From: an uncultured Candidatus Saccharibacteria bacterium
GTDB lineage: Bacteria; Patescibacteriota; Minisyncoccia; UBA6257; JAKLIH01
Assembly: GCA_964475745.1 (NCBI GenBank)
Contig: CAYYXO010000001.1
Coordinates: forward strand, 1-51,516
Length of the DNA stretch: 51,516 bases
Reading direction: 5' to 3'
Shown here piece after piece: positions 1-51,516 of the stretch; position 1 is the stretch's first letter; every line of letters begins with the position of its first letter. The notes under the pieces are model-generated. The model did no database searches, was not told the origin of the DNA, and worked only from the letters and a program-made list of their open reading frames with translations. A program made the translations under genes and the position numbers.

Positions 1-1594
1 GACATTTAATATAAAAATTATCAATATAGGGTTTATGTAAATCAACCTCATTTGTTATGGTGTTTTGAGGAAGCTCTGTTTCGTTTTGACCTTTACCTAA
101 AAATTTCAACTCCTCTATTGAACCAATAACATGCTTTTTATCACACTTTTCACAAATTCAAACTGGCAAAGGTGTTCCCCAATAACGCTTTCTTGATAAA
201 GCCCAGTCTTTTAGCTCTTTAATTCATTCTCCAAAGCGACCATGCTTGATATATTTTGGTTCTCAATTTATCAATTCATTGTTTTCCCACAATTTTTCTT
301 TTAATTGAGTCATCCTGATAAATCAACTATCATCTGCTTTATAAATTAATGGTGTTTGACATCTTCAGCAAAACGGATATTCATGTAGAGCACCAATCAA
401 GTCTCCATAAAGCAACAACCCTCTTTCTTTTAAATTTTCAAAAATTATTGGGTCTGCTTTTTTAAAAAATAATCCTCTTGCTTGTTCTAAAATATTTTCT
501 TTAGGCATTATTTTTCCATCATCTGATACATTTAAAATAACTGCTAAATTTTCCTTCATGCCAACCTCCATGTCGTCAGCTCCAAATGCAGGAGCTAGAT
601 GCACTACTCCAGTGCCGTCTGAACTAGAAACAAATGGGGCTTCAACAATTTCATAAACTTTTTTATTTGAAGCTATTGCTTCTTTATCCTCAAACAATGC
701 TTCATACTTCATGCCAATTAAATCATGAGGACTTACTTCTTTTATCTTTCTTACCTTAGCTTCTTTTAGAAAATCTACTTCAGTTAAATCTAAATGACAA
801 ATAATATTTTCTCCTTCTACCTCAAATAGAAAATATGATATTTTTGTGTTTACTGCTAAAGCAACATTCGCCATTAAAGTTCATGGCGTGGTTGTCCATA
901 CTAAAATTTTAGCGTCTTTTATCGCTAACTTTTCTGCTGAATCTTTTAAGTTAAATTTTATATAGACTGAGGGGTCTTTTACTGTTTTATAGCCTTGAGA
1001 AACTTCATGGCTTGATAAGGCTGTGCCACATCTTGGACAAAAAGGAATTACTTTGTAACCCTTATAAAGCAAATTCTTTTCAAAAACTTGTTTTAAAATT
1101 CATCAGACTGATTCAATGTATTCATTGCTATAAGTTACATAAGGTTTTTCCATGTCCAGCCAATAACCAATTCTTTCAGTTGTTTTTTCTCAGTCCTTTG
1201 TGTATTTTCAAACTGATTCTTTACATTTTTGATTAAATTTATCTACGCCATAGCTTTCAATGTCTGCCTTATTTTTAAAACCCAACTCCTTTTCAATTGA
1301 AAGCTCCACTGGCAAGCCATGAGTATCTCAGCCAGCTTTTCTTTCAACATAAAAATTTCTCATTGTTTTGTAACGACAAAATACATCCTTATATACCCTT
1401 GCTAAAACATGATGCACTCCTGGCTTGTTATTGGCTGTTGGTGGTCCTTCATAAAAATTAAACTCTGCCGATCCTTTTCGTTCCGCCAATGTTTTTAAAA
1501 ATATTTGCTGTTTTTTTCAAAAATCCAAAATTGCTTCTTCCTTTTGAACAAACTCCAACTTTGGCTTTTGCTCCTGATTATTTTCTTTTTCCAT
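1..1594 (-). CDS. ileS: Isoleucyl-tRNA synthetase, N-terminal ~530 aa; the 3' end runs off the window start
   Basis: Fragments 365-874, 881-1072 and upstream pieces join in one frame through TGA only. Start ATG at 1592-1594 ([16 protein letters not shown][W]KK). Motifs: [17 protein letters not shown] (HIGH), AG[W][11 protein letters not shown][W][W]ILKQ, VWTTTP[W]TL, YPFC[W]RC, D[W][14 protein letters not shown][W]. Confidence 0.95.
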
Positions 1595-1615
1595 GTTTAA
1601 AAATTTTTAATGATA

Positions 1616-2953
1616 TTATTTTTTGCTCTCCAAATGTCTTTTTGCTATTTCATAGTCACCCAGATAAGCTTGCTTTTTAACCCCCTTAAGACCATCTTTT
1701 ACCATAATAATTTTTTCAGCTCCCTTGCCTGTTAAAATAACCACCTCATCGTCATTATTAACTAAATCAATGGCTTTTTTAATGGCTGTTTCTCTATCAA
1801 GAATAATCCTGGCTTTATTTTTGTCTGTTATGCCATTATAAATACTGTTAACTATTTTTTGAGGATCTTCATCATAAGGGTCTTCATTCGTAATAATAAC
1901 GTAATCGCTCATTTCTGTGGCAATTTTGCCCATTTCAGGTCTTTTTCATTTATCACGACCACTGCCACCACAAGAACCAATTACACTAATTATTTTTTTA
2001 AAACCCATATCTTTTAATGTTTGCAAAACTGCTTTTAAAGAATCTGGCGTATGTGCATAATCAACTACCACATTTATGTTTGATTTTGTTTTTACAAATT
2101 CCATCCTTCCTTTTGCCCCTTGATATTCATTTAATATTTTAGCGACTTCTTTCATATCTAATTTTAAAGCTTTCAAAATCGCTAGAGCAATTAAAACATT
2201 ATAAACATTAAAAAGCCCATAAAGAGCTAAATCAAAATTTACTCCTTCAAAAGAAAAATGTATGCCGCTTTCGTCTATAGCTAGATTTTCTGGCTTAATC
2301 AATTTTAAATCAAGCACGCCTACTTTTGAGCTAGGCTTGTCTTGCTTGGCTGAAACAACATATTTTTTATCAGCATCAAATCTAACAAAATAGTTTTCAT
2401 GTAAGTCATCAAAATTAACTACTGAAACTTTTTCAACTTTTTTGTTATCAATATATTTGGTTTTATGCTTAGTTAGCAAACTAAATAATCTGCCTTTGGC
2501 ATTTTTGTAATTATCAAAACCTCCGTGTATTTCAATATGTTCTTTTTGTAAGTTAGTAATAGCTGCTATGTCAAAATTAAAACAATCCGCCCTAAACTGC
2601 TCAAGCCCTCAAGAGGTTACTTCAACAATACCAACCTTTGCTCCACTTTTTGCTGCCTTTCTAAAAAATAATGGTAAGCTTCATCTCCCAGGCATGGTCA
2701 TCTTTTGATCATTTGGTTTTGCTTTGCCATTTTCTCAAACCTCCATCGTAGAATAGCTGGCAAATTTAATATTTAATTTGCTTAAAACATTTGATAGCAT
2801 ATTTACTACCGTGCTCTTTCCTTTAGTGCCAGTAACTCCAATAATAATCATTTTTTCTTGACAACCTTTTAACATAGCTACACCCACCAAAGATCAAAAA
2901 AAATGTCATAATTTTTTTACCATATTTAATGGCTTTTTTATCAAGTCTTTCAT
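1616..2953 (-). CDS. Mur ligase family protein, MurE-like (UDP-N-acetylmuramoyl-tripeptide synthetase type)
   Basis: Fragments 1616-1933 and 1946-2479 plus upstream sequence are in one frame (1338 nt). P-loop GVTGTKGKST, C-terminal GSCGGSGRDK[TGA]KRPEMG..VIITNEDPYDEDP typical of MurE/MurF-type ligases. Start at 2953 is the longest option; 2923 and 2875 are alternatives. Confidence 0.8.
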
Positions 2954-3034
2954 AAAATTTTTTTACTCTTTATTTTTAGTACATATTATAGTATACTATA
3001 TAATATCAAATAATCATTATGAAATCAAGCAAAA

Positions 3035-5028: not shown

Positions 5029-5054
5029 ATCCCAGAAATATCTGGGATTTTTTT
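5029..5054. terminator. Bidirectional intrinsic terminator between convergent uvrB and proS
   Basis: Hairpin atcccaga-aata-tctgggat flanked by an A-run and a T-run. It overlaps the proS stop codon. Confidence 0.75.
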
Positions 5055-6504
5055 AATAGCTTTTTCCAAACAATCATTTTTGGTTAGAATCTTTATTGCA
5101 ATAAATACATTTGCATTGTTCTTTGGTGTTTATTCTGTCCAATTCTAAACATCTTACTGTAGCTGAAGTTTCTTCTTTAATTTTATTTTCACATTCAGCA
5201 TTTTCACATCAACCAGACCTAACAACATTTCCCTCTTCAATGTATTTTTTAAATTCTTCATAAATTTCCGTTTCTTTTGTTTTGCTATTTCTCATTTGTA
5301 AGTTTCTACTAAGCAATCTGTTTTGAACTTCGTTTAATATTTCCTGGATTTTTTCTTCAAAACCATCGCTTGATATATCTTGTTTTGAAAAATCATCTCG
5401 AGCTACTACTTTGATTATTTTGCTTTCCAGCTCTTTGCTTCCAATCTCAATCCTCAAAGGAACACCTTTTAGCTCTCATTCGTTTATTTTATAACCCAAG
5501 CTATGAGTGTTGTCTTTATCAATTACAACTTTAATTCCTTTTTCCTGCAATTTGGCTTCGATAATTTTAGAAAAATTCAAAACCTCTTGATCAGTGTCCG
5601 TTTTTTTAGTAATCGGCAATATCACTACTTGAATTGGTGCAATATTTGGAGGCATAATCAACCCCAAATCATCGCCATGTGCCAAAACCAATGCCCCAAT
5701 AGATCTAGTGGTTAAGCCAAAAGAACTTTGATGAACAAAGGTCTGTTTACCATTTTCATCCAAAAACTTTACATCAAAAGCTTTGGCAAAATGATCTGAC
5801 AAGTCATGCGATGTGCAAGCTTGCAATGCTTTACCATTTGGACAAACAACTTCCACGGTATAAGTGTTCTTAGCACCAGCAAATTTTTCTGATTGACTTT
5901 TTACACCAACATAAGATGCTATCGCCATATATTCTTCATAAAAAGTTTTATATCAGTCAAGCGCCCTGAAAACCATTTCCAAATTTTCTTGTTCATTAGA
6001 AAATGCCGTGTGGCCTTCTTGTCACAAAAACTCTCTTGTTCTCAAAAAAGGAAAGGTTCGTTTTTCAGCTCTAAAAATATTACATCATTGATTGATTTTA
6101 ATAGGCAAATCTCTGTGTCCTTGTATTCAATCGGCAAAAGTTCTATACATAATGGTTTCTGATGTTGGCCTTAACACCAATGGATCTGTCAACTCTTCAT
6201 CACCTATTTTGTCTATTGTAAAAAGCTCTGGAGCAAACCCCTCCACATGTTCTTTTTCTTTTTGTATAAAACTCATTGGAATCAACATTGGAAAATAACA
6301 ATTTTCAAAACCATCTGCCTTGAACATTGTATTTAATATTTTTTGAGTATTTTCTCAAATAGCATAACCATAAGGTCGTATCACTATGCTTCCCTTCACA
6401 TCAGAATAGCTGCAAAGCTTGGCTCTTAAGACAACATCATTATATCAATCTGCTATGTTTTCTGATTTTTTGGTTAAATCTCTTTTTTCAAAACTTTTCT
6501 CCAT
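5053..6504 (-). CDS. proS: Prolyl-tRNA synthetase, archaeal/eukaryote-like type (483 aa)
   Basis: Fragments 5209-5457, 5476-5928 and 6127-6327 are in one frame. [13 protein letters not shown][W][13 protein letters not shown][W][12 protein letters not shown][W]QEGHTAF. The Cys-rich C-terminal domain ends in ..FGKSY, the terminal Tyr typical of this ProRS type. Confidence 0.93.
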
Positions 6505-6622: not shown

Positions 6623-7027
6623 TTAAAATAATTCTTGAAGCATCTCCTTTATCATGCCTATTTCAGAAAATCCTTCCCACACAAAAAGACTGGGCTGGCC
6701 TTGTTCTAACACATAACAAGAGGCCAAGCTTTCCTTTTCTTTTATCTTGTCTGGAAAGGAATCCAAATTAAAGCTTTTAAGGAGTTGCTTTATCCACTCC
6801 ACCTCAAGATCGCCGCCGCCTCTGGCCTTATGAACATACAAATAAGATAAAAGCAGCTTTTGCTCTACGCCCAAGGGAATTTTTAAAAGCGGCTTTCCCT
6901 TTTTTAAAATTTCCTCCTCCGGCTTTTGCAAAATTTGTGTGAGAATTATTTCTGCATCTGCTGGCTTTATCTCTTTTCCTATTTGCTCCGCACAAAAAGT
7001 CGCCACAATCTTTTCAAAACCTTTCAT
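6623..7027 (-). CDS. Hypothetical protein (134 aa), orphan monocistronic cassette
   Basis: Uninterrupted ORF ending in TAA. Strong SD AAGAGGT 6 nt upstream of the ATG, own promoter and terminator. No family recognised. Both Trp codons are TGG. It looks locally more GC-rich than its surroundings. Confidence 0.6.
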   Translation of the reverse strand: MKGFEKIVATFCAEQIGKEIKPADAEIILTQILQKPEEEILKKGKPLLKIPLGVEQKLLLSYLYVHKARGGGDLEVEWIKQLLKSFNLDSFPDKIKEKESLASCYVLEQGQPSLFVWEGFSEIGMIKEMLQELF

Positions 7028-10890: not shown

Positions 10891-10891
10891 A

Positions 10892-11617
10892 TTAATTTAT
10901 ATAATTAGCATTTGTAAAGACCTCTTTTACATCTTGGCAATCATCTAGAGCTTCTAGTAATTTATCGATTTTATTTTTGACATTTTCTTCTTTGACATCA
11001 ACTTCTTGATTGCCTTTTCATTCTAGATAGGCGTCTAGTGTTTCAACAAATTTTTCCACTTCTGCTTTTACAATATGCAAATCGCTATTAACGGTTTCTA
11101 TCTCTACTACTTCTTCTCCTATTTTTATATCACTTGCTCCTGCTTCAATCACCTTCATTTCAAAATCTTCTTTTCAGTTTTTTATATCAATAATAATTTT
11201 TCCTATTTCATTAAACATCCATTTCACACTTCCTTCTCCTGCCATTTTGCCATCATATTTTGACAAAGCATGTTTTACTTCTGCTACTGCTCTATTTTTG
11301 TTGTCTGTAATAACCTGTATAACTAAAGCTATGCCGCCTGGGCCATAGCCTTCAAAAAACATTTCATTAATAATATTTCCCTCGTTTAACTCTCCGGTAC
11401 CTCTTTTTATAGCTCTTTCTATGTTTTCTTTAGGCATTCCTGAAGCTTTTGCTCTATCAATCAGCAAACGCAATTTAGGACTAAGACTTACATCCCCCTT
11501 GCATTCACTGCTTGCCAAAGCAATAGCTACAGCATACTTTGAAAAAATTTTCCCTTTTTTAGCATCATTAATGCCTTTTTGATGCTTTATTGACGATCAT
11601 TTATTATGTCCTGACAT
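10892..11617 (-). CDS. yebC: YebC/PmpR family DNA-binding transcriptional regulator
   Basis: N-terminus MSGHNK[W]SSIKHQKG, with TGA at 11597-11599 on the family-invariant Trp. ..RAKASGMPKENIERAIKRGTG..FEGYGPGG.. Ends at TAA 10892-10894, abutting the ruvC start. Confidence 0.9.
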
Positions 11618-11788: not shown

Positions 11789-13033
11789 ATGAAAAATAAA
11801 AAATATTTTGTTTTTATAATTATAGTGTTTTTGTCCTTTGGGCTTGTAAGTAAAAAAGCTTTTGCTTGAGATTGCCCTCTTCAAACAGTTGGCTTGTCTC
11901 GCACAAACCAACAAGGAAAATTTAATGAAGTAGTTGCTTTGCAAACAATTCTTTCTTTGTACCCTAACATTTATTCTGATGTTGAAATTGTTGGTGCTTT
12001 TGGTCCAAAGACAGAAGCTTCTATCAAAAGACTGCAAACAGACAATGGCTTGCCGGCCAATGGTGTTATTACTCAAGACACTCTTAATTTGCTTTGCCAA
12101 CAATACTACTACTGCCCCTTCAGAAGTATGGTTGGTCGAGGCGATGATTTAAACCCAGAGCAAATTATTGAAATAAAAATTCTTCAATCATTTCTTAAAT
12201 TTTTACCAGAAGTTAGATATACTGGTCCAGTGACCGGATTCTTCGGTGTTTTAACAGAACAAGCAATAACAAAATTTCAAAACGCCTACAATCACTATCC
12301 AACAAAAATAATGGATTTTGAAACTATAAATTCTCTATGCAACATCTTAAAAAACATCAATGATATTAATTTAACTAAAGCCGTAACTGCTTCTCCTAGA
12401 CCAGCAGCTCCAGCAACACGCGGGCCATTAATTGCTGTTTGTGTCGCTGACCCAAAGGAAGCTCAACCAAATCAAAAAGTCAACTTTTTGTCACAAACCA
12501 TCGGTGGTAACCCGCCTTATCGTTATCAATGAAGTGGCTATGCTTCAGGCACTAGCAATTCATCTTCTAATGTTTTTACAGGAAACGGTGCTTACACAGC
12601 TATTTTAAAAGTAACTGACAGTTCCAATCAAACAACTGAAACTAGCTGTCAAGCCATCGTTGGTTCTAGAGGCTACCAGCCACCTGCCAGCATACCGCCA
12701 ATAACCATGCCGACAACTACTACTACCACCACCAGAGCAACTCAGCCACCAACTGACTATACTGGAAAAGTGTCTATCCAAATGACTAGTGATTTTCATG
12801 AAATAAAACAAGCCAATGACACTATAAACATCTTTTGAACCAGCAACAATGCTGAAACATGTTATGCTACTTCTGCTCCAACACATCAAAGCTGAAATGG
12901 GCCTGTTAATTTAACTGGTCAAAAAACAATTTCTAACTTGAACATTGCTCCTGGCAATGCTATAATTTTTACTTTGGTCTGCAATAATCGCAACCAAACA
13001 GAAGTAAAATATGTTGTTATAGAAAGAAAATAA
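11789..13033 (+). CDS. Secreted protein: signal peptide, two peptidoglycan-binding (PG_binding_1-like) repeats, PKD-like domain, poly-Thr linker, C-terminal beta-rich domain
   Basis: ATG 11789. MKNKKYFVFIIIVFLSFGLVSKKAFA signal. Two G..T..AI..LQ..NGLPANG-type repeats. GGNPPYRYQ[W]SG..G.YTAILKVTDSSNQ (PKD signature). TTTTTTT linker. Two further in-frame TGAs. TAA at 13031-13033. Confidence 0.75.
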
Positions 13034-13046
13034 CTAAATTTTAAAA

Positions 13047-13904
13047 GTGCCTGAACTCCCAGAAGTTTTAACAACCATAAAATATCTAAAACCAAAAATG
13101 GTTTCTAAAACCATTGTTGATATTTGAAAAAACAAAAAAACAAAAATAGGCAACCAAATCAACAAGAGTTTTTCAAAAGCTCTTGTTAATAAAAAAATCC
13201 TTGCTATTGAGAATATTGGCAAATATATTTTATTTTATTTGAGCAGCGACTTGGTTTTAATTATTCACCAGAAAATTAGCGGTTACTTGCTTATCGATAA
13301 ATTTACCTATCAACAAGGAATTTGATACAAACCAAACCAAGAGACTTTACGCTTCCCTCTTATTGGCATCACGCTTAGCAATCTCTCTACTTTGGTTTTA
13401 ATAGACCACAGAAGACTAAGTCGCCTTTCGCTTGTTTATAAAAAAGACCTTTTAAAAATCACCCTCTTAAAACAAATGGGGTTAAACCCTCTTTTGCCAA
13501 GTTTTACCTGGCAAAGCCTTTATGATCAATTTACAAGACATCCTAGACTAAACCTAAAAAAAGCTCTTTTAAACCAAACTATTGTTAGTGGCCTTGGAAA
13601 TATTTATAGCGACGAAGTTCTTTTTTTAAGCAAGCTCAAGCCTTTTAAACTAGTTTCCACGCTCACTCAAGCAGAAATTAAACTTCTCCACAAAAATATT
13701 ATTAAAGTTTTAACATCGGCTATTAAAAACAAAGGCACCACTTTTGCCAACTACCACAATCCTAGCGGTCAAAAAGGCGGCCATTTAAAATATCTTAGGG
13801 TTTATCAGCGAAAAGATAAGCCCTGTCTTAGGTGTGGTGCTAAAATCAAATGTCTTAAAATTAATCAGCGCAGCAGCTATTTTTGTAATAAATGTCAAAA
13901 ATAA
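13047..13904 (+). CDS. mutM: Formamidopyrimidine-DNA glycosylase
   Basis: GTG start gives the canonical (M)PELPEV N-terminus. In frame with ORF 13392-13904 through TGAs. H2TH region and C-terminal zinc finger CLRCG..CNKCQ. Confidence 0.88.
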
Positions 13905-18257: not shown

Positions 18258-18266
18258 TTTTTTATT

Positions 18267-19181: not shown

Positions 19182-19243
19182 ATTGCTTCCATTTATTTTT
19201 GTTAATAAGTAAAATATAACAAATTTTTTATAAAATAACAAGA

Positions 19244-19277: not shown

Positions 19278-19285
19278 AAAATCTT

Positions 19286-33194: not shown

Positions 33195-34505
33195 TTAAAT
33201 ATTTTTATAAAAATTTTTTATTTTTTCATCCACAAAAACAAAGCTTTCATTAATTGGCCTCCTTAGTACCAGCCCTTCTAAAGTGCGACATCTGCTAAGA
33301 GCCACATATGCCTGGCCAGAAGCAAAGGTTCCTCTGTCAAAATCAACCACCACTCTATCAAAGGTTTTTCCTTGAGACTTATGAATAGTTACCGCTCAAG
33401 CCAATTTTAATGGTACTTGATAGAAATACCCGGAAACCTTAGCTTCAATTGCTTTTGTTTTTTGGTTAAAATTATATTTTATAACTTCTCATTTAAAAGG
33501 ATTTACCACTTTTTCTCCTTTGCCTTTTACTTCTAAAATAATTTTATTACTTCCTAAAGAATCTTTTTCTATTTTTTTAATAACGCCTATATCTCCATTC
33601 ACCCATTTATTATAGCTATCGTTTATCAAAAACATCACTTGAGCGCCCTCTTTTAATATTAATTTTTCTTGAGTAGGCAATCTATCAATTGGAAAATCTC
33701 CTGAAATTATTCCTTCTATTTCTTCTATTTTTTTATCAATCATCTGCAACCTTTCTTGGTTTATTTTTTCAGCCATATGATTTGTTGTTGAAAGATAAAT
33801 ATAATTTTCGTTTAAGAAACTATCAAAATTACCGTTAACTCTTTTATTTATTTCATAAACTATTTCTTTGTTTAATTCACCAACCCTAATAGCATCTAAA
33901 ATTTTTATAAAATCTGCTTCTTTTTGCCTATAAACAAAATCTAAATCCACCCTTTTTAAAGAAAAGTTTTTAAAAACTTTAGCATCAAAAAAATAAGGAC
34001 TGTTATATCTTTGATAAAAAAAACCCTCTTCTTGTTTGTCCACCACTGGCGGCAACTGAAACAAATCTCCAATAAAAACCACTTGCACTCCGCCAAAAGG
34101 CTCAAAAGGTTCTTTGGTGTGCATCCTTAAAAAAACATCTATACAATCAATTAAATCTGCTCTTGCCATAGATATTTCATCAATAATCAAAATTTCAATT
34201 TTACTATAAAGCAATTGCTTCTTAACATTTTTTGCTTGCTTTATTTCTGAAGGAATAATCCCTGGCTTAAAACCAAAAAAAGAATGAATCGTTTGCCCCT
34301 TTACATTTAAAGCTGCCACCCCTGTTGGAGCCAAAACAACACAATTTTTCTTTGTTTTAATTCTAAAACAATCAATTAAAGTTGATTTACCTGTTCCTGC
34401 TCTGCCACTAATAAACAAATTTTCTTTGGTATTTTCCATTAAATCAAAAACCTTGGCAAAATCTTCGCTTCAAATTAAATCATTTTTTTCAATTATTTGC
34501 TTCAT
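33195..34505 (-). CDS. Pif1/RecD-like SF1B DNA helicase (436 aa)
   Basis: ORF 33489-34439 extends at both ends through TGAs. Walker A GRAGTGKST, LAPTGVAA, IIDEISM, GDLFQLPPV, C-terminal AVTIHKSQGKTFD, AYVALSRCRTLEGL. Confidence 0.85.
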
Positions 34506-34589: not shown

Positions 34590-34835
34590 TTAAATATTTA
34601 ATAATTCTTGTATTTTTTTCTTATCAAAACCAACCACAAATTCACCATTAATCTCAATGACCGGCACACCTGCTTGACCTGTTTTTTGCATAAGCTCCAT
34701 AGCTAATTCTTGAGACTGAGAAACATCAACTGATTCAAACTCAACATTATTTTCTTTCAAGAAATTTTTTGCTACATCACATCAAGGACAAACTGGCGTG
34801 GTATACACCTTTACAATATCTTTTTCATTTTCCAT
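34590..34835 (-). CDS. Glutaredoxin-like protein (NrdH/YruB type, 81 aa); absent from the ORF track
   Basis: Hand translation: MENEKDIVKVYTTPVCP[W]CDVAKNFLKENNVEFESVDV..GVPVIEINGEFVVGFD..; TGA at 34782-34784 lies inside the CPxC active site. TAA at 34590. Confidence 0.8.
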
Positions 34836-35992: not shown

Positions 35993-36027
35993 CCCCGTCT
36001 ATGCTAACAATAGACGGGGTGTTTTTT
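35993..36027 (+). terminator. Intrinsic terminator (plus-strand orientation) downstream of the candidate ncRNA
   Basis: Stem ccccgtcta / tagacgggg with loop tgctaacaa, then tgtttttt. The minus-strand version lacks a U-tail. Confidence 0.75.
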
Positions 36028-39010: not shown

Positions 39011-39053
39011 AAACTATTTTTAATACTACTATAAAAATAACAAAAAACATCAT

Positions 39054-39093
39054 AAAAAACAAGCTCCAATTATATAATTGGAGCTTGTTTTTA
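39054..39093 (-). terminator. Intrinsic terminator after rpmB
   Basis: Long palindromic hairpin acaagctccaatta-ta-taattggagcttgt flanked by an A-run and a T-run. Confidence 0.75.
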
Positions 39094-39288
39094 TTTTAGT
39101 TTGTTTTCTTTTGTCATTTTTCTTTGACATGAAGTACACACTCTTGCTTTATGGCCGGTTTTTAGCTTAACATCATGTAAATTTGGTTTTTGAAAATATT
39201 TTTTAGTTGGGTCTAATTTTGACATAATTTTCTTTCAAGATGTTGCCTTATTTCGGCCTTTTCCACAATTATCACAAATCTTAGCCAT
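39091..39288 (-). CDS. rpmB: 50S ribosomal protein L28 (65 aa); absent from the ORF track
   Basis: Hand translation: MAKICDNCGKGRNKATS[W]KKIMSKLDPTKKYFQKPNLHDVKLKTGHKARVCTSCQRKM.. L28 pattern with CxxC..CxxC zinc-ribbon form. TAA at 39091. Confidence 0.8.
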
Positions 39289-39387
39289 AGCAATATATTT
39301 ATACTTATTTAACAACTTTATCTTATCATATTATTGTTTATTTAGCAAGGCCATAAACAATAATACCTTTTAACCAATAATATTGCT

Positions 39388-40239
39388 TTATAAAAGCTGT
39401 AGTTTTTTATCTCTTTCTTTTTTAAACATTTCTCTTAGAAAAAGTGTCCTTTTTCCAACTTTGCCCTCTGCAATAATATGTTTATCTATCTTTACTATTG
39501 GCATAATTTCTTTTGTTGTAGCTGTTATAAAAACTTCATCTGCTTTTATCAGCTCTTGATAGCTTACTTCTTTTTCTTCTATTTTTATATGTTTTTTTGC
39601 AACTTTTAAAACAAATTTTCTAGTAACTCCGAACAGCATTCCTTCTTTGGGAGTTATTAAAACATCTTTTTTAATTAGAAATATATTGCTAGTTGAGCAT
39701 TCGAAAACCTTATTGTTTGAAGTGTATAGTATTTCTTCTGCTTTTTGTTTTTTCATCTCCTTTCTAAAACAAATCGCTTCAATATAATGACTTGATTTTA
39801 TCTCGCTTAAACCTCTTTTAAAATTAATACTCATAAGTTTTATACCTTTTTCATAAAAGCTTTTAGGAAAATCATTATATTTTTGAACAAAAATAAACAA
39901 TGTTTGGTTTTTTCCTAGCTCTAAATCTGATTTACCAATACCAGGGCTTAATACTAATTTTATTTTAGCTTCTAGACAATTATTCTTTTTTATCAAATTG
40001 TTTATTATGGACTCTATTTCTTCTTTACTTTCTTTTAGGTTTAGCCTCAAAGCTTTAATTGCCTTTCTTAGTCTTAGAAAATGATCTTCAAACAAAAATA
40101 TTTTTCCCTTGTAAACTCTCATTACTTCTGTTACTGCATAACCTCTTGAAAAGCCTAAGTCAAAAGGAGAAATTTTTGCACTTTTTAATTTTGTAATTTT
40201 GCCGTTTAAATAGCAATATTGATTATCATCAAAAGACAT
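39388..40239 (-). CDS. Class IV aminotransferase (branched-chain / D-amino-acid aminotransferase family)
   Basis: 283 aa. N-terminal ..NGKI......ISPFDLGFSRGYAVTEV.R.Y.GKIF.FEDHF.RL pattern and fold-type IV length. Substrate not assignable. Confidence 0.8.
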   Translation of the reverse strand: MSFDDNQYCYLNGKITKLKSAKISPFDLGFSRGYAVTEVMRVYKGKIFLFEDHFLRLRKAIKALRLNLKESKEEIESIINNLIKKNNCLEAKIKLVLSPGIGKSDLELGKNQTLFIFVQKYNDFPKSFYEKGIKLMSINFKRGLSEIKSSHYIEAICFRKEMKKQKAEEILYTSNNKVFECSTSNIFLIKKDVLITPKEGMLFGVTRKFVLKVAKKHIKIEEKEVSYQELIKADEVFITATTKEIMPIVKIDKHIIAEGKVGKRTLFLREMFKKERDKKLQLL

Positions 40240-40257
40240 ATTATTTTTTTAATTTTA

Positions 40258-40920
40258 TTAAACTACCAAAATGGTAAACTCCCCTTTTTCTTTCATTTCT
40301 TTAATATCTTCTTCTAAGTTTTCAAAATCAGTTCGAATTATTTCTTCAAAAATTTTTGTCATTTCTCTAAAAACAATTATTTTTGTTTTGTTTTCGATTT
40401 TTTCTTTAATCTCCTTCAAAGTTTTTTTAATTCTATAGGTTGACTCAAAAAACAACACTGCTCCATTAAAATCAGAAACCTCTTTCCAAAATTTATTTTT
40501 TTTTGTTTTAGGCACAAATCCTAAAAAAGCAAATTTTTGAGCATTTACACCTGAAACACTTATCGCCATAGTTACCGCTGAAACTCCTGGTATAGGAACA
40601 ATCTCGACTTGCATTCTTTTTAAAACTTCATCTATCAGCTTATTTCCTGGATCAGACACTCCTGGTGTGCCTGCTTCACTTACCACCGCAATGTCTTTCT
40701 CCTGTTTTAAAACTTTTAAAACTTCTTTCACTTGTTTTTCTGTAGGATTTTGAAAAAACTGAAATATTGGTTTTCTGATATTAAAATGGCTCAGCATTTT
40801 TAAAGTTGTTTTTGGTGTTTCTGCCAAAATAACATCTACTTTTTTTAAAGTTTCCATGGCTCTTAAAGTAATATCTTGCAAATTGCCTATGGGCGTTCCT
40901 ACAATATATATTTTACTCAT
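40258..40920 (-). CDS. rsmI: 16S rRNA (cytidine1402-2'-O)-methyltransferase
   Basis: MSKIYIVGTPIGNLQDITLRAMETLKKVDVILAE.., SEAGTPGVSDPG; tetrapyrrole-methylase fold typical of RsmI. Confidence 0.85.
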   Translation of the reverse strand: MSKIYIVGTPIGNLQDITLRAMETLKKVDVILAETPKTTLKMLSHFNIRKPIFQFFQNPTEKQVKEVLKVLKQEKDIAVVSEAGTPGVSDPGNKLIDEVLKRMQVEIVPIPGVSAVTMAISVSGVNAQKFAFLGFVPKTKKNKFWKEVSDFNGAVLFFESTYRIKKTLKEIKEKIENKTKIIVFREMTKIFEEIIRTDFENLEEDIKEMKEKGEFTILVV

Positions 40921-40943
40921 TTTAAATGTTTAAATCAATTTTA

Positions 40944-42050
<1,107 letters not shown>

Positions 42051-42269
42051 TTACTTTAGCTTTCTTTATCAAAATTAATTAGCATTTTGGCAAAGAAAGC
42101 CAGAGCACCAAGAGTAATTAATTTTAAAATAAGTGGTTGCTCGCACTATTAGCCCACGGACTAATAAAATATAGAGCTTCCTTTAAAAATAAATTAGTAA
42201 ATTCTCTTTAATGCCCTAGCAAGATAATTGTAGCATATTTTCAAATTTATTCAAACAAACATACTTTTC

Positions 42270-42301
42270 AAAAAAACACTGCCCAAAGACAGTGTTTTTT
42301 C
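42270..42301. terminator. Intrinsic terminator downstream of ndk (symmetric A/T flanks)
   Basis: Hairpin acactg-cccaaaga-cagtgt with an A-run before and a T-run after. Confidence 0.7.
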
Positions 42302-42321
42302 AGCATTATATCTTTTCTTCT

Positions 42322-42906
42322 TTAAAAAGTTTCGTCATACAAAATAGCATCTCTTATATTTTTATAAGAATAGATTTCTTTTTCATCAAACCATACTTTT
42401 ATTTCATAGTCTGCGTCAAATTGATTGGCTGAGGCATGCACCAAGTTTCTTACCGCCCTTTTGTCTCCATCTGCTAGATCATATGAATCGATAGTATAAT
42501 CTCCCCTAATTGTTCCTACATCAGAGTTTAAAGGCTCTGTTGAGCCAACTAATTTTCTAACAATAGGAATGGAATTTGAACCTTCTAAAACTATCGCCAC
42601 CACTGGGCTTTGCGATAAAAAAATTACCAACCGGTCTATAATAGCTTGTCCTAATTCTTTTGGATCATCATTAACCTCAACCCCATTTTTCTTTTTTCCT
42701 TCGATTGATCTTTTCCCTAAAGCCTCTATCTCTTCTTCATTTTTGACATAATGTTTATAAGCTTGCTCCTTGGTAGGTAATAAGAATTTCATACCCACTA
42801 TTTTTAAACCCGCTCTTTCAAATCGAGAAACAATGTCTCCTGTTAAATTTCTTTGCACTGCATCTGGTTTTAACAAAACCAATGTTTTTTCATCTTTGTT
42901 TTTCAT
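42322..42906 (-). CDS. ndk: Nucleoside diphosphate kinase (long form, 194 aa, with an internal insertion)
   Basis: TLVLLKPDAVQRNL.G.I..RFE..GLKIVGMK, GTIRGDY, NLVHASA (active-site His). Confidence 0.88.
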   Translation of the reverse strand: MKNKDEKTLVLLKPDAVQRNLTGDIVSRFERAGLKIVGMKFLLPTKEQAYKHYVKNEEEIEALGKRSIEGKKKNGVEVNDDPKELGQAIIDRLVIFLSQSPVVAIVLEGSNSIPIVRKLVGSTEPLNSDVGTIRGDYTIDSYDLADGDKRAVRNLVHASANQFDADYEIKVWFDEKEIYSYKNIRDAILYDETF

Positions 42907-42916
42907 GATGATTTGT

Positions 42917-44338
42917 TTAATTATTTATATTTATCTTAAGCTCTTTTAATTGTGCTGAATCAACTTCTGCTGGAGCTGACATCATCAAGTCTTTGTTGTC
43001 CCCTGTTTTTGGAAAAGAGATTACTTCTCTTATGCTGCCTTCATTTTGCAACACCATCAATAATCTATCCAGTCCAAAAGCAATTCCTCCATGAGGTGGC
43101 ACACCAAAACCAAACATCTCAATATAATGGCCAAATTGTTTTTGAAAGATTTCTTTGCTGTTTCCTAAAACTTCAAAAACAGCCTCCAAAATATCTATGT
43201 CTGTTTCTCTTAAAGACCCTCCTGCAATTTCATATCCATTTAAAGCCAAATCATATTGAAACGCCTTCAAGTCTTTTGTTTTTTCATTTATTGCTTTTAT
43301 TTTTTCTTCCTTTGTTAGCTCTTGGCCAAAATTAATCTGAGTAAAGGGATGATGCACTGCCACATAACCTTCTTCTTTGTCTTGACCTGCTTCATGCCAT
43401 TCAAACATAGGAAAGTTAACCACAAAAGCAAAGCCCAATTCATTTTCGTCGTCTTTATTTTTTCTTATATCTGGCTTATCAGAATTATATTTTGCTATAG
43501 CTTCTTGATAATCAATCCTTGGAAAAGGAAAGGCTGTAAAATGTTTTTCTGGATAAACTTCTTCTATTATTTCTTTTATCATGTTTTCTGTCATGCATCT
43601 AATCTGTTCTTCTGTTTTAAAGCTAACTTCAATATCCAGCTGAGTAAATTCTGGCTGACGATCTCCTCTTGGATCTTCATCTCTAAAACATCTTACGATT
43701 TGAAAATATCTTTCCACTTGAGCTACCATCAACATTTGCTTGTATTGCTGGGGTGATTGAGGCAAAGCATAAAATAATCCTTTACCAACTCTAGTTGGCA
43801 CTAAAAAATCCCTTGCTCCTTCTGGAGTTGATTTTGTTAAATAAGGTGTTTCTATTTCTAAAAATTTTTCTTTGTATAAATAGTCTCTTATCGCTTTAAA
43901 CAACAGGGCTCTTTGTTTTAAATTATTTTGCATTCTTGGCCTTTTAAGATCAAGGTATTTTTTAGCCATTCTTAGTTCTTCACCAATATCCTTGCCATCG
44001 CCATAAACATCAAAAGGATGATTTTTTGCTTCAGACAAAACTGTTATTTTTTTAACTTCAAGCTCAATACTTCCTAATGGAGTTTTATCATTTTTCATGC
44101 TATCAGGCCTTTCTTTTACTAATCCTTCAACTTTTACTACTCATTCTGATCTTAATTTCTGAGCTTCATCATAGTCATCCCCTAGTCATGGACCCAAAAC
44201 CGACTGCACTGCTCCGGTTGAATCTTTTAAATCAATAAAAATAATTTTGCCGTGATCTCTTCTAGTTTCCACTCAACCATAAAGCTCAACTTCTTTATCA
44301 ATAAAATTGTTTAGCTCCTCTATATATACTTCTTTCAT
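42917..44338 (-). CDS. aspS: Aspartyl-tRNA synthetase, compact form (473 aa) without the bacterial insertion (GAD) domain
   Basis: ORF 42917-44098 extends through TGAs to ATG 44336-44338 (OB-fold N-domain ..LYG[W]VETRRDHGKIIFIDLKD). FQIVRCFRDEDPRGDRQPEFTQLD (motif 2) and GGIAFGLDRL (motif 3). Confidence 0.9.
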
Positions 44339-44468
44339 ATTTAGTATTTACTCGTTTTATATTATCTAAAGTATACCACAACCCGACCTATTTTGCAACG
44401 AAACAAAAACCTCTTTAATAAATTTTTTAAACATGTTATACTCTATACAATTATCTTTTATTTGCTTT

Positions 44469-44849
44469 ATGGACCATTTTGAAGTTGGCCAGCATGGCGA
44501 AAATTTAGCTAGAAAATATTTATTAAAAAATAAATACCGTATTTTATTTTGCAACTATCGCTTTAAACACTGAGAAATAGATATTATTGCTAAAAAGAAA
44601 GATGTTCTTTGTTTTGTTGAAGTCAAGACCAGAAAATACAGAAATTTTAAACAAGAAAAAGATTTGACCTCTCTTGCCGAAGAAGCACTAACTCTTAAAA
44701 AAAGAAAACATTTTTTAAAAGCAAGCCAAATATTTTTACTTAAAAACCCAAAATACGAAAATTTGGCTTTTCAATTTTCTTTACTAGCAATATATTTGTT
44801 TGATAACCACCTTCCTATTTTTAATTTTTATGAAAATATTTTAGAATAG
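44469..44849 (+). CDS. yraN: YraN/UPF0102 family endonuclease-like protein (126 aa)
   Basis: ATG 44469. GQHGENLARKYLLKNKYRILFCNYRFKH[TGA]EIDIIAKKKDVLCFVEVKTR. In frame with track ORF 44664-44849. Confidence 0.75.
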
Positions 44850-44857
44850 CTCTATTT

Positions 44858-44886
44858 TAAAAACCCGCCTCTTAGGCGGGTTTTTA
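44858..44886. terminator. Bidirectional intrinsic terminator between convergent yraN and rny
   Basis: Hairpin aacccgcc-tctt-aggcgggtt flanked by an A-run and a T-run. Confidence 0.8.
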
Positions 44887-44888
44887 AT

Positions 44889-46415
44889 CTATTTTACATA
44901 TTCAATTACTCTTGTTTCTCTAACAGCCATAATTTTAATTTCTCCATAAAAATCCATCTCTTCTTTAATTTTGTCAGCGATTGCTTTTGCTAGCTTAGCT
45001 GTGCCATAATCATCTATCTTATCTGGAAAAACAAAGACTCTTAATTCGCGTCCCGCTTGGATAGCATAAGCTTTTTCAATCTCTTTAAATGAAGTGGCTA
45101 TTCTTTCAAGGTTTTCCAATCTCTTTAAATAGTTTTCTAGAGCTTCTTTTCTTGCTCCTGGCCTTGAAGCTGAAATAGCATCAGCTGACATCACAATAGC
45201 TGCTTCCAATGTTTCAATAGGATAATCTTCATGATGAGACTGCATAGCCTTGATAACATCTTCTTTGATATTATATTTTTGCAAAATCCTTCTGCCAATT
45301 TCCACATGAGAACCTTCTATTTCATAATCAATAGCTTTGCCAATATCATGTAAAAGACCTGCTTTTTTAGCTACTGTTGTGTCTGCCCCTAGTTCAGCTG
45401 CCATCATGCTAGAGAGCATAGCGACCTCCAAGGAATGTTTTAAAACATTTTGGCTATAGCTAGTTCGATACTTCAGTCTGCCTAGCAAAAATACTAGTTC
45501 TGGAGGTAAATCTAAAATGCCCACTTCATAAACAGCATCATCTCCTGCCTTTTTAATCAAATCTTTTATTTCTTGCTCTGCTTGAGAGACTTTTTCTTCA
45601 ATTTTTGACGGTTGAATTCTACCATCTTGTACTAATTTTTCTAAAGCAACCTTAGCTATCTCTCTTCTAATTGGGTTAAATGAAGAAAGTGTAATCGTAT
45701 CTGGAGAATCATCAATAATTAACTCTACTCCGGAAACTTTTTCAAAATGACGAATATTTCTTCCTTCTTTACCAATAATTCTACCTTTCAAGTCCTCTGA
45801 AGGAATTTGCACTGTTGAAATTAAAAATTCACTGGCATTACCATGGCCATATCTTTGTACTGTTGATAAAATAATATCATGAACCTTTTTTTCAATCTCT
45901 TCCTTTCTTACATTGTCTAATTGTCTCATTGAAGCAAGTAGATCATGTTTACTGCCTTCTTCAATTTTTTCTAACAAAACTTTTTTGGCTTCGTCTTTAG
46001 ACATATTTGCTATCTGCTCTAAAACTTTTTCTTCTGATTCTTTCATTTTTAAAATATCCTCTTTAATAACTTTGAGCCTAGCAACATCTTCTTCTACCTT
46101 TTTTTGACCTTGATCAATATCAACTTGCCTTTTGTCTAAAAGTTCTTCTCTTTTAAGCAATCTGTTTTCATTTTTAGACAACTGTTCTTTTCTCTCTCTT
46201 TCTTCCTTTCTCACATCTTCCATTACTTTTGCTGCTTCTTCTTTTGCTTTTATAATAATTTCTTTTGCTTCTTCTTTTGCTTCTTGAACTTTTGTTTTTA
46301 GTTGAGCTTCCACTGAGTCAGCTCTTGTTACAGCAATATATTGTCTTACAAAATAACCTATTACGCTACCTAAAACTAGCAAAATAGCGCCGGCTATAAC
46401 TACATTATTAAACAT
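44889..46415 (-). CDS. rny: Ribonuclease Y
   Basis: 508 aa. N-terminal TM, long coiled-coil, KH domain (GRIIGKEGRNIR), HD domain (LLHDIGKA). Confidence 0.92.
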   Translation of the reverse strand: MFNNVVIAGAILLVLGSVIGYFVRQYIAVTRADSVEAQLKTKVQEAKEEAKEIIIKAKEEAAKVMEDVRKEERERKEQLSKNENRLLKREELLDKRQVDIDQGQKKVEEDVARLKVIKEDILKMKESEEKVLEQIANMSKDEAKKVLLEKIEEGSKHDLLASMRQLDNVRKEEIEKKVHDIILSTVQRYGHGNASEFLISTVQIPSEDLKGRIIGKEGRNIRHFEKVSGVELIIDDSPDTITLSSFNPIRREIAKVALEKLVQDGRIQPSKIEEKVSQAEQEIKDLIKKAGDDAVYEVGILDLPPELVFLLGRLKYRTSYSQNVLKHSLEVAMLSSMMAAELGADTTVAKKAGLLHDIGKAIDYEIEGSHVEIGRRILQKYNIKEDVIKAMQSHHEDYPIETLEAAIVMSADAISASRPGARKEALENYLKRLENLERIATSFKEIEKAYAIQAGRELRVFVFPDKIDDYGTAKLAKAIADKIKEEMDFYGEIKIMAVRETRVIEYVK

Positions 46416-46689: not shown

Positions 46690-48456
46690 TTATTTTAAAA
46701 CCGCTTTAATCCTTCTTATTCCCTGAGAAGAAGATTCTTCTTTTGTTATTTTAAATTTACCTAATTCTTTTGTATTTTCTACGTGAGGGCCAGCACAAAT
46801 TTCTTTTGACCAGTCTCCAACACTATAAACTTTCACTATTTCCGGATATTTTGCTTTAAAAGAACCAATATATCCTTTTTCTAAAGCTTCTTTTAAAGAT
46901 ACTTCTTGGTAATTTATTTTTAATCCCTCTATTATTTTTTCATTTACTATTTTTTCCACTAAATCTTTTTCTTGATCAGTCATTTTTCTATCAAAAGTAA
47001 AGTCAAACCTTAGCCTTTCGTCGTTTATATCAGAACCCTTTTGAAAAACACTTTCCCCTAAAACTTCTCTTAGAGCTTTTAATAGTAAGTGAGTGGCAGT
47101 ATGAAGTTTTGTTCTAGTTTTAAAACTTTCAGAATTTTTTTCTAGGTTTTCTAAATTATGACCTCCAAATTTATTTTCTAGGCCAGCTCTGGAAACCTCC
47201 TTATGCTTTTTAAACTCTTGGCTAAACTGGATTTCATCTACTTCAAACCCACGCATCTTTGCCTCTTCCTTTATCAGCTCTATTGGAAAACCAAATGTTT
47301 CATAAATATAGAAAGCCTGTCTGCCATCAATCATTTTTTCTCGGTTGTTTTCAAAAATAATATTAAGCTCTTTTAGGCCTTTTTCCAAAGTTGTTTCAAA
47401 TTTATTTATTTCTTTTTTCAAAACATTCAAAATCTTCTCCGTTTCCATTATTTCAGGATATTGCACTCCGAAATTTCCTTGCAAATCAATCAATAGTTTA
47501 TCAAAAATATCTTCTGTTATTTCCAGTTGTCTTAAATGTCTCAAAATGCGACGTATCAAACGACGCAAAACATACCCTCTTTCAATGTTTCCTGGCTCAA
47601 TATTATTAGCCATTAAAAACACACTTGCTCTAAAATGATCCACTACAATCCGAGCACTCTTTTCAATATATTTTTTTGACTTTTCTTTTATTAAATCTAT
47701 TTGTTTAATAAAAATATCTGTCTCATAGATTGTTTTTGAATCAAATTCATTTGAAAAATTAACTGCTAATAATTGCCTTTCCAAACCACCCCCCGTGTCT
47801 ACGCCAACTTTTTCTAAAGGCGCTAAAGTTCCATCTAAACTTTGATAGTATTGGTTAAAAACTAAATTTCAAATTTCCACCTCTTTAAAATGTATTTCTG
47901 TGCAAGGACCACAAACTCCTTCGCTACCAACTGGCCCTCAAAAATTGTCTTCTTTTGAACATTTAAAAATTTTAGCTTTATCAATCCCTTTTGCCAATCA
48001 CAAATCATAGCTCTCTTGGTCAAAAGGAGTTTTTTCATCACCCTCAAATACTGTAACGGTAACATCTTTTTTATCCAGCTTTAAAACCTCAAAAATATAC
48101 TCGAAAGCAAAATCTATGGCTTCTTTTTTAAAATATGCCCCATTAAAAGCAAAATTACCCATCATTTCAAACATGGTTAAATGTCTCTGGTTGCCTACTT
48201 CTTCTATATCAACTGTTCTTATGCATGGCTGAGATGTTGTTACTTTGTCAGAACCAAGTGGTTGATTAATCCCAGGGTGAATATCTTTTTTTGGATTTTT
48301 TTCAAGAGTATAATATGGTTTAAACTGTTGCATACCAGCAACATTAAACAAAACACTCTTGTCATCATTGGGCACCAATGATGCTGCTTTAATAATCTTG
48401 TGTCCTTTTTTTTCAAAAAACTCCAAAAAAGTCTTTCGTAGCTCTTGTGATGTCAT
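46690..48456 (-). CDS. alaS: Alanyl-tRNA synthetase, compact form (588 aa) lacking the C-Ala domain
   Basis: Fragments 46690-47784 and 47998-48456 are in one frame via TGAs at conserved Trp positions (EDNF[W]GP, EI[W]NLVFNQY). DTGGGLERQ, editing-domain HTATHLL and CAGPHV. Ends right after ..GIRRIKAVLK. Confidence 0.92.
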
Positions 48457-48465: not shown

Positions 48466-49368
48466 TTAATTTATTTGTTTTAGCAAATCATTAACAAAAT
48501 CCAGTCCGCCATCACCAGTAATGACCACATCAAATATCTTTAAATATTTGTCTTTTAATTCCTCTTCTTTTTCATTTAAATATCCTATCTTTATAATATT
48601 TGTAAATTCAATATTTTTTACCATATTAACATCGCCTTCCGAGTCTCCTAGCAAAATTATGTTATGTCTGTCTTTTATGTTTTCTTTTATTTTTTCATTT
48701 TCAATTATTACCTCGTCTTTATTTAAAACATGAATAATGGGCTTTTTAACATCAACAAAATATCCTGTTTCATTTCAAATTATCTCATTAGCAATTAAAT
48801 GTATCTTATTGCTTTTAATATCAAATCTTTCTAGAATCATTTTGATTACATCTCCACCAAGCCCATTAGCAGTAATAATGGTTAATGGAATTTCCAAACA
48901 TTCTAAAGCTTTAAAAAAATCTTTATAACCATCTCTAAACAAAATTCTATCTGATTTTATAATAGCTTCTAGATCGCCCTTAGACAGCCCGCATTCTTTT
49001 AAAACCTCATAATGCTTACTTCATCACTCTAACATTTTATTTTTTCTTTCTGATCAGTCCATGTCTTTATTTACTTCAAAAGCATGATAAAAATTAAACA
49101 GATCTTTTGCCCTTTCTGAATAATCTTCTGTGAGATATTTTTCATCCCGCAAAATGGAAATAACCGAGCTAACTTTCTGGCCATCAATCTTTGATTTAGT
49201 AAGTGTTTTGTCAAAATCAGAAACCACCTGGAGTTTTTCAGCTCCATCCTTTTTTATTTTTTCTATTTTCTTTTCTAGCTCTTCTTTATTAGAAATATAT
49301 ATATTTTCCATAATATTATTTATTTTTTGCAGCATCTTAATTATATCAAAATTATAGCCAAAAAACAA
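48466..49368 (-). CDS. HAD-superfamily pyrimidine 5'-nucleotidase (UMPH-1/cN-III-like)
   Basis: Fragments 48466-48654 and 49054-49368 plus the middle are in one frame. VVSDFDKTLT (DxDxT), ..MLE[W][W]SKH.., ITANGLG, LLGDSEGD. The likely true start is internal (M at 49335 or 49311). Confidence 0.7.
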
Positions 49369-49409: not shown

Positions 49410-49483
49410 GGACGATTAGCTCAGCTGGTTAGAGCACTTGGTTTACATCCAAGGGGTCAGAGGTTCGAATCCTCTATCGTCCA
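49410..49483 (+). tRNA. tRNA-Val (anticodon UAC), no encoded CCA
   Basis: Perfect cloverleaf: acceptor GGACGAT/ATCGTCC, D arm GCTC..GAGC, anticodon stem CTTGG/CCAAG with loop TTTACAT, T arm AGAGG-TTCGAAT-CCTCT, discriminator A followed by CTT. Confidence 0.93.
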
Positions 49484-49505
49484 CTTTTATAATTTATAAT
49501 TTATT

Positions 49506-50480: not shown

Positions 50481-50496
50481 TTAGAGACCTTTTTTG
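50466..50496. terminator. Bidirectional intrinsic terminator after obg
   Basis: Hairpin aggtctct-aatt-agagacct followed by a T-run. It overlaps the obg stop. Confidence 0.8.
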
Positions 50497-50940
50497 CTAC
50501 TTAGTTTTTCTTTGTGATCCATATCCTTGTCTAAAAGCATGTCTTGGCATATTCTCTTCATGACACAAGCCTTCTTTCTGTTCTAAAAAGTCTTTCATTG
50601 CTTGTGCTCTTGACAAATCAATTTGACCTAAGGACAACATTTCATCAATTTTTGCTAGTTTTTCCTCCTTAACCTTGTTTCTAAATTCTTCTTTAGTCAT
50701 GTCAAACTTTGTTGCTATTTCAGAAAAACTACCTCTTTCTTTCAATTGAATTAACAATTGATCCTTGTCTACATTAAATATAGCTGCCTTTGCTTCCAAA
50801 TTTCTTTCAAACCCATAATTTTTTCTAACTTCATTTTTGCTTTCTTTTGGTAAAGAAAAAGCAAAAACATCACTTTGGCCCACAAAAACCCCTCCGACTA
50901 TTAAGCCTATTATTCACAAGGGCATAAATTTGTTTTTCAT
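50497..50940 (-). CDS. Hypothetical secreted/membrane-anchored small protein (147 aa)
   Basis: ATG 50938-50940. MKNKFMPL[W]IIGLIVGGVFV hydrophobic N-terminus, then a helical Lys/Glu-rich region. In frame with track ORF 50497-50883. Confidence 0.55.
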
Positions 50941-50942
50941 CT

Positions 50943-51516
50943 TTATTGTTTAAAATTATTAAACCGCGGATTTTCTTCTCGACCTATTCATGTATTATTA
51001 CGCTTCTCCTCGTCATTTATTTCATTTAAAAAATTTTTTCTGTTTATTCTAGGCCTTATTTTAAAAACTTCAAAACCCTCTTCTGTTTCAAAGCCACTTA
51101 CCAAAACCAAATCACCCACTTTTAATCTACCTATTATCCCTTTTGCCAAAAAAGAATCTTTTTCTTGAACATAAACAATTTCACCCTCTTTTAGCTCAAT
51201 AGCTAGTAGACCTTCTTCTCCTCTCTCAATAACTTCTCCTTCTTTTATATATTGGTTTATTCTTTTTTGATGATCTTGTGTCCATTGTCTTGTAATCATT
51301 AAATTTGGCCTTTCATCAGAATAAATACTTTTAAAAAGCATGGTGCTATTAATCAAAAAACTTAAAGCTATTACTATTAAAACCACCGCTAGCGTAACCA
51401 ACAAAACTGATTTTCTATACAGAGGCAACAAACCACTCAAAGATATTTCAAAAATTAACAAGAAAAATATTGCCACAAAAATTAATGTTCACGGTAAAAT
51501 ACTAAATAACATTCTA
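50943..51516 (-). CDS. Hypothetical membrane protein (possible start ATG 51510-51512, or continues beyond the window)
   Basis: ORF 50988-51476 extends through a TGA at both ends. Two N-terminal TM helices. The TGA=Trp reading ends at TAA 50943-50945, 3 nt from the next gene's start. Confidence 0.5.

Follow-up and report, generated by a model that had tools for sequence, protein, structure and literature searches.

Positions 1–51,516 of contig CAYYXO010000001.1 (assembly GCA_964475745.1), hereafter called the window, raise the question of what UGA means to the cell from which this DNA came. The original prediction, made from the letters alone, had proposed that TGA is read throughout as tryptophan (translation table 4) in a genome with the gene content of a walled CPR (candidate phyla radiation) bacterium. 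Our analysis makes it very probable that the window derives from the chromosome of an uncultivated patescibacterium of family JAKLIH01, in which UGA has been fully reassigned from stop to Trp. Reading UGA as Trp is supported because two independent tests agree, namely alignment of TGA sites to homologues of solved structure and codon comparison with relatives.

To define the gene set, we delimited open reading frames (ORFs) by TAA and TAG only, reading through TGA. The window, which has a GC (guanine plus cytosine) content of 31.3%, then contains 51 genes that cover ~94% of its length, 44 of them on the minus strand. In-frame TGA occurs at least once in 37 of the 51 genes (73%), close to the two thirds of about 51 genes that had been described as split under the standard code. 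The ORF map also bears out that every split is a TGA, never TAA or TAG, with the reading frame kept across it. All 50 genes with a 3′ end inside the window terminate at TAA or TAG, as had been claimed for the re-joined genes; the 45 complete large genes use TAA 39 times and TAG 6 times (87/13%), and five small genes likewise terminate at TAA/TAG. The distribution of in-frame TGA along the genes (15, 12, 15, 13, 5, 4, 6, 9, 10 and 9 by successive gene decile) shows no pile-up at the 3′ end. Furthermore, coverage by stop-to-stop ORFs of at least 150 amino acids rises from 60.5% in the standard code to 92.1% when TGA is read through. The relatives' loci L004–L009 show a similar jump, whereas the standard-code control loci L011–L023 gain 0 to 7 percentage points.

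The codon counts are those of an ordinary sense codon. The 51 genes contain 100 TGA and 34 TGG among 16,126 codons. With TGA counted as Trp, this residue makes up 0.83% of the total, while TGG alone would leave an implausible 0.2%. The share of TGA among TGA plus TGG is 0.75, near the A-share of most other pairs of codons ending in A or G (Lys AAA/AAG, 0.82; Glu GAA/GAG, 0.79; Gln CAA/CAG, 0.82; Arg AGR, 0.79; Leu TTR is lower, 0.61), and under AT pressure TGA therefore behaves as a codon fully synonymous with TGG. The rarest sense codons in the window are CGG (10), CGA (25) and CGC (30). The plus strand has an extreme base skew (T 19,388 versus A 15,990; C 9,956 versus G 6,182); the window falls inside a single replichore, and the ORF map shows no skew switch.

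To identify the amino acid, we marked each TGA as X in six proteins and aligned these to homologues of solved structure (PDB) from standard-code organisms, a tabulation akin to the one, in profile-HMM alignments, that the original prediction had proposed as a check. Against the best PDB homologue of each protein, 27 of the 38 pooled TGA sites fall on Trp (binomial p ~6e-41 for a Trp background of 1.5%) and none falls on Gly. The six individual codons for which positions had been given (881–883, 6085–6087, 6022–6024, 16034–16036, 15995–15997 and 11597–11599) all read TCA on the plus strand, that is, TGA on the coding strand. The motifs quoted around them are present as well: TTTPxTL in IleRS, INQxCN and REFLxQEGH in ProRS, RDAxIVGYTP and GVxVGNND in PBP1A, and GHNKxSSIKH in YebC.

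In the N-terminal part of IleRS (ileS, positions 1–1594, minus strand; the gene runs past the window edge), 11 of the 12 in-frame TGA codons align to Trp of Thermus thermophilus IleRS (1ile_A) and one to Phe. The TGG codons of the same protein also fall on Trp (4 of 5), and thus both TGA and TGG encode Trp, in line with the earlier statement that TGG is used too. In ProRS, which is of the archaeal/eukaryote type (proS, 5053–6504, minus strand, nine in-frame TGA), six of nine TGA sites align to Trp of 1h4q_A and seven of nine to Trp of 5xio_A. One of these codons lies six codons ahead of the conserved C-terminal Tyr, and the alignment runs through it to the final residue of both proteins, so that this TGA is no terminator; it is the only late TGA for which a homologue allowed such a check. 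In the short-form AlaRS (alaS, 46690–48456, minus strand, 588 residues, three in-frame TGA), the TGA codons in DNF-W and EI-W-NLVF both align to Trp of 9jc7_A, as had been predicted, and the third to Glu.

The remaining three proteins agree. PBP1A, a class A penicillin-binding protein identified from its solved homologues (15251–17737, minus strand), has the 2487 nucleotides originally reported; the accompanying count of five pieces is a minor slip, since its seven in-frame TGA codons split it into eight under the standard code. Four of the seven align to Trp of 4oon_A (rrnWile, kdgWfsgy, svWvgf and lpiWiry) and none to Gly. In the YebC/TACO1-family protein (10892–11617, minus strand, Pfam match), two of three TGA codons align to Trp of 1lfp_A. 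The AlkD-like DNA alkylation repair protein (30407–31063, minus strand; PF08713, E = 1.6e-31) has five in-frame TGA codons, of which four are aligned with 1t06_A; two of these fall on Trp in this nearest solved homologue, so that the four Trp positions originally claimed for this family are borne out only in part. Outside the six proteins, a small glutaredoxin-like ORF (34590–34835, minus strand) contains a redox motif C-P-TGA-C, which would be CPWC under table 4. The usual glutaredoxin motif is CP[Y/W]C, into which an aromatic residue fits; Gly would be unusual.

The second test compares codons between related genomes. At 46 sites where the window has TGA, the orthologues in the family have TGA 22 times, TGG 10 times and a Phe, Leu or Tyr codon 14 times, and never GGN. 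Where the window has TGG, they read TGA in 10 cases and TGG in 3. At least five independent metagenome-assembled genomes (MAGs) have TGA or TGG at the same positions. TGA and TGG thus swap freely between related species, as judged from these aligned codons.

Both tests bear on the glycine reading of UGA (table 25), which is used by Absconditabacteria/Gracilibacteria (GTDB class JAEDAM01), the CPR lineages earlier known to be recoded. The phylum is shared, the window has low GC and its genes commonly carry in-frame UGA, and on phylum alone table 25 would be the default. However, Gly occupies 0 of 38 sites against solved homologues, GGN occurs in 0 of 46 codon comparisons, TGA interchanges with TGG, and the nearest genomes are Minisyncoccia rather than JAEDAM01. 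The column counts, with no Gly at any site, rule out table 25, to which we assign only a trace of probability.

The same data speak to the view that the TGA codons are real stops or errors, arising from pseudogenes, a decaying genome, assembly errors, programmed readthrough or selenocysteine. Most genes do look broken under the standard code. However, TGA alone interrupts the genes, at 100 sites in 51 genes, with the frame always kept, and the TGA/TGG identity of the sites is shared by independent assemblies. Selenocysteine in particular, which would mean rare UGA at Cys/Sec positions of selenoproteins together with tRNA-Sec and SECIS, is at odds with 100 sites across 37 genes that fall on invariant Trp rather than on Cys or Sec, and the sole tRNA or Rfam match in the window is tRNA-Val, with no tRNA-Sec. 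Site conservation and Trp alignment together rule out these readings, whose combined probability we consider negligible.

A further question is which lineage the window represents. RNase Y (44889–46415, minus strand, no in-frame TGA) served as a taxonomic probe and was scanned against the GTDB species representatives. Its best match is in CAYGJE01 (92% identity), and five MAGs, including JAKLIH010000017.1 (82%) and JAKJEE01, match at 80–82%. JAKLIH010000017.1 is 'Patescibacteria group bacterium RA.bin82', the genome after which GTDB family JAKLIH01 is named. Identity falls to 59% for JAQVPP01 ('Candidatus Paceibacterota bacterium STF1_206') and to 39–46% beyond it.

Gene order points the same way. 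RNase Y belongs to a block (39388–46415, minus strand) that comprises a class IV aminotransferase, RsmI, MnmA, Ndk, AspRS and RNase Y in the order found on contigs of genus JAKLIH01, with a YraN-like gene inside it on the plus strand (44433–44849). Orthologues of the block occur in the same order in loci L005, L006 and L007 at 50–86% identity. Besides RNase Y (82% to JAKLIH010000017.1), six further orthologues lie in the same order at 52–86%, giving a seven-gene mean of ~69%. RNase Y and synteny are strong proxy evidence that the window belongs to family JAKLIH01 (order UBA6257, class Minisyncoccia). The window matches no fetched representative exactly, the 92% RNase Y of CAYGJE01 being the best, and therefore looks like a further species in or beside genus JAKLIH01. 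An exact-protein look-up with PilT returned three contigs only, of 1.1–1.9 kb.

Beside this block, the relatives differ from the window in one respect. A tRNA-Pro(GGG) gene lies between the L28/aminotransferase genes and a tandem PilB gene in L005 (13498–13569), L006 (12142–12216) and L007 (10575–10649). The corresponding stretch of the window (39011–39387) is without that tRNA, and the gap between the L28 gene and the start of the PilB fusion is just 80 nucleotides (39011–39090).

The window has the gene complement of a walled, CPR-type cell, which, together with the nearest genomes, all Patescibacteria MAGs, bears out the CPR-like, peptidoglycan-containing background originally described. 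Specifically, a Mur ligase (MurE/MurF-like; 1616–2953, minus strand, six TGA) marks peptidoglycan synthesis with matches to Mur_ligase_M (2.9e-33) and Mur_ligase_C (2.3e-29), while a type IV pilus cluster (17727–26579, minus strand) encodes pilin-like proteins, PilD, PilC, PilT, PilB, PilO, PilN and PilM, most of its genes carrying one to five TGA. Pfam matches cover RuvC, YebC, a peptidoglycan-binding (PG_binding_1) protein and the Mur ligase; PilD, PilC, PilM, PilN, PilO and a pilin-type N-terminal methylation motif; and a ComF-like phosphoribosyltransferase together with AMP-phosphorylase-like and phosphoribosyl-pyrophosphate-synthetase-like proteins. Each member of the previously listed profile (Mur ligase, PBP1A, RuvC, type IV pilus, comF and AMP phosphorylase) is thereby recovered, PBP1A through its solved homologues and the others through Pfam. 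The housekeeping set further includes four aminoacyl-tRNA synthetase genes, S20, L28, RNase Y, Obg and UvrB.

These identifications also address an origin outside CPR cells, either from a stop-codon-recoded phage or from a Mollicutes-type bacterium. Recoded phages are known and table 4 is classic for Mycoplasmatales; in addition, the next-best RNase Y matches after the Patescibacteria (41–46%) are mostly MAGs labelled as gut Bacilli, Tenericutes or Clostridia, beside a single bin labelled Bacteroidaceae and a further Patescibacteria MAG (41%). On the other side, there is no megablast match among 50,697 phage records and the gene content is housekeeping, which rules out a phage. Mycoplasmatales are wall-less Bacillota without peptidoglycan synthesis genes, whereas the window has a Mur ligase, PBP1A and a PG_binding_1 protein. 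The misfit of the peptidoglycan and pilus genes, and best matches of 80–92% that are Patescibacteria MAGs with gene order in common, rule out Mollicutes. We regard either origin as highly improbable.

The recoding seen here is already known. UGA-to-Trp reassignment in family JAKLIH01 was published in April 2026 (Nucleic Acids Res 2026;54(7):gkag327; PMC13092985), where tRNA(UCA) is reported for two of the four family genomes, release factor 2 (RF2) is missing and UGA stops do not occur. The four genomes of Supplementary Table 2 in PMC13092985, three JAKLIH01-genus species plus genus JAQVPP01 (GCA_028702045.1), all have 0% UGA stops, 150–303 Codetta columns supporting UGA as Trp, and TAA/TAG stop shares of 82–88/12–18%, and the JAQVPP01 entry (150 columns) has tRNA(UCA). 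A preprint describing gTranslate (10.64898/2026.05.24.727570, 28 May 2026) reaches the same conclusion and adds 12 JAKLIH01 genomes, reports a second recoded Minisyncoccia lineage (genus GCA-2747955), and names Patescibacteriota as the first phylum in which tables 4, 11 and 25 all occur. The lineage of the window thus has a published recoding, and our reading, though supported, is not new. The original prediction had called UGA as Trp unexpected in such a background; that holds relative to textbook accounts, but as a statement of established knowledge it is outdated by these two reports.

The window closely resembles the published family in UGA as Trp, in UGA not being a stop, in GC (~30%) and in its TAA/TAG shares, and it shares with contigs of genus JAKLIH01 both gene order and an RNase Y that is 80–82% identical; it differs in being identical to no fetched representative. 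Genus JAQVPP01 belongs to the same family and has UGA recoded too, but its RNase Y is 59% identical and its TGA is much sparser than in the window. Absconditabacterales/BD1-5 (class JAEDAM01, table 25) share the phylum and a sense UGA, which is Gly there and at none of the 38 sites here. Other bacteria with table 4 (Mycoplasmatales, the reduced endosymbionts Hodgkinia, Nasuia, Zinderia and Stammera, ciliate symbionts among the Verrucomicrobiota, and genera of Eggerthellaceae) likewise read UGA as Trp in AT-rich and/or reduced genomes and by report have lost RF2, usually with a tRNA-Trp(UCA). However, they belong to unrelated phyla and represent independent events, and the lineage of the window has retained peptidoglycan synthesis along with a type IV pilus.

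Genomes within the family differ in how far UGA has spread. The deeper-branching JAQVPP01 (GCA_028702045.1) has a TGA within the YchF motif 'RAWT'. Its 11.9-kb locus (JAQVPP010000001.1, 1–11864) contains ~6 TGA to 7 TGG, with at most about one TGA per gene and TGG still common, and its ORF coverage moves only from 0.746 to 0.788 between the two codes. The window, with TGA at 75% of its Trp codons, and the sparse JAQVPP01 look like different stages of UGG-to-UGA drift in one family.

One gene in the window departs from this usage. A PolB-exonuclease-like gene (32475–33185, minus strand) has four TGG and no TGA despite the genomic TGA share of 0.75 (chance ~0.4%, one gene); the location 6623–7027 (minus strand) is listed alongside this observation. 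The gene shares a block with a Cas4-like PD-(D/E)XK nuclease (31726–32454) and a PIF1-like helicase (33195–34505). Possibly it was acquired recently, from a donor with the standard code or from a mobile element.

How would UGA be decoded? The window contains no tRNA-Trp of either anticodon by ARAGORN and Rfam, its only tRNA being tRNA-Val(TAC) (49410–49484, plus strand). Seven family loci from GTDB genomes have, by ARAGORN, tRNAs for Pro, Val, Ala, Ser, Arg and Leu only, and none for Trp. Because the relative L009 has a tRNA cluster beside obg, we used Obg for a metagenome scan, which returned nine loci, of which seven with 66–76% Obg identity were counted as family loci. These seven have tRNAs for Val, Ala, Ser, Arg and Phe, and none for Trp. 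The only tRNA with a TCA anticodon that we met is a 95-nucleotide tRNA-Sec directly after obg in L033 (2173–2267, plus strand), an unrelated contig whose Obg is 41% identical. No release-factor gene is found among the annotated genes of the window, whose 51.5 kb cannot show absence from the genome. As neither a tRNA-Trp nor a release-factor gene occurs in the window or the family loci, the decoding machinery is taken from the literature.

On the strength of the published family analysis and of other table-4 bacteria, RF2 would have been lost, a tRNA-Trp with anticodon UCA would decode UGA, possibly helped by tRNA-Trp(CCA), and AT mutational pressure would later have turned most UGG into UGA. 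UGA might instead be read as Trp with no dedicated tRNA(UCA), through near-cognate reading by tRNA-Trp(CCA) after RF2 loss, as proposed for Ca. Zinderia. The tRNA(UCA) is, after all, found in only half of the four published genomes (PMC13092985), and it is missing from the window and from the family loci examined. However, all these assemblies are fragmented MAGs, so that the simplest explanation for a missing tRNA is a gap in the assembly. In addition, the tRNA-Trp(CCA) of JAKLIH01 has an ordinary 5-bp stem rather than the 4-bp form linked to UGA reading (PMC13092985), and inefficient decoding seems unlikely when UGA provides 75% of Trp codons. We therefore consider near-cognate decoding unlikely. 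The narrower proposal that this organism, like half of the published JAKLIH01 genomes, truly lacks the cognate tRNA(UCA) and reads UGA with its 5-bp-stem tRNA-Trp(CCA) after RF2 loss is decidedly unlikely; if true, it would be a decoding route undocumented so far for such heavy UGA use.

Three points weigh against reassignment to Trp in a JAKLIH01 cell. First, 11 of the 38 aligned TGA sites face residues other than Trp (F, I, H, V, E, N); such matches are expected at variable positions, though themselves no proof of Trp. Second, none of tRNA-Trp(UCA), tRNA-Trp(CCA) or a release-factor gene is present in the window or across the ~135 kb of the 14 family loci. Third, membership of the family rests on one marker and six syntenic orthologues.

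Several further features of the window concern its envelope and secretion genes. Poly-Thr linkers (TTTTTTT) occur both in the peptidoglycan-binding-domain protein (11789–13033, plus strand) and in the C-terminal extension of PBP1A, whose tail of ~190 residues past the transpeptidase domain is without a PDB match. Besides the PilB (22154–23914) and PilT (21003–22088) of the pilus cluster, a tandem PilB/GspE fusion of 994 residues (36026–39010, minus strand) contains two complete secretion ATPase units and a separate Walker A motif in either unit (GPTGSGKTTT and GPTSSGKTTT). The fusion is kept in the relatives' loci L005–L007 at 62–65% identity.

Two enzymes outside these systems are also of note. 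The gene at 48466–49335 (minus strand) strongly matches the eukaryote-type cytosolic pyrimidine 5′-nucleotidase UMPH-1 (PF05822, E = 1.8e-59) and adjoins alaS, as it does in the relatives' loci L008 and L009. The Fpg/Nei glycosylase (13038–13904, plus strand) has its first ATG 20 codons downstream of a candidate GTG start; most likely the GTG is used, yielding the canonical N-terminus (M)PELPEV with catalytic Pro2.

The practical importance of the finding lies in annotation. The contig requires table 4, and calls in the standard code or table 25 would break up or wrongly translate about three in four of the genes on it, consistent with the earlier warning that most would be mis-called. Scientific interest is modest, the window adding one more species-level example of the recoding and an extra member of the family. 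With this lineage, Patescibacteria become the first bacterial phylum in which three codes are known (tables 4, 11 and 25), and UGA-to-Trp capture is seen in an episymbiont-type cell that has a wall and a pilus rather than in a wall-less or intracellular one; both points were already in print in 2026. The contrast within the family between the window, whose Trp codons are 75% UGA, and JAQVPP01, where UGA is sparse, could help to reconstruct the course of codon capture.

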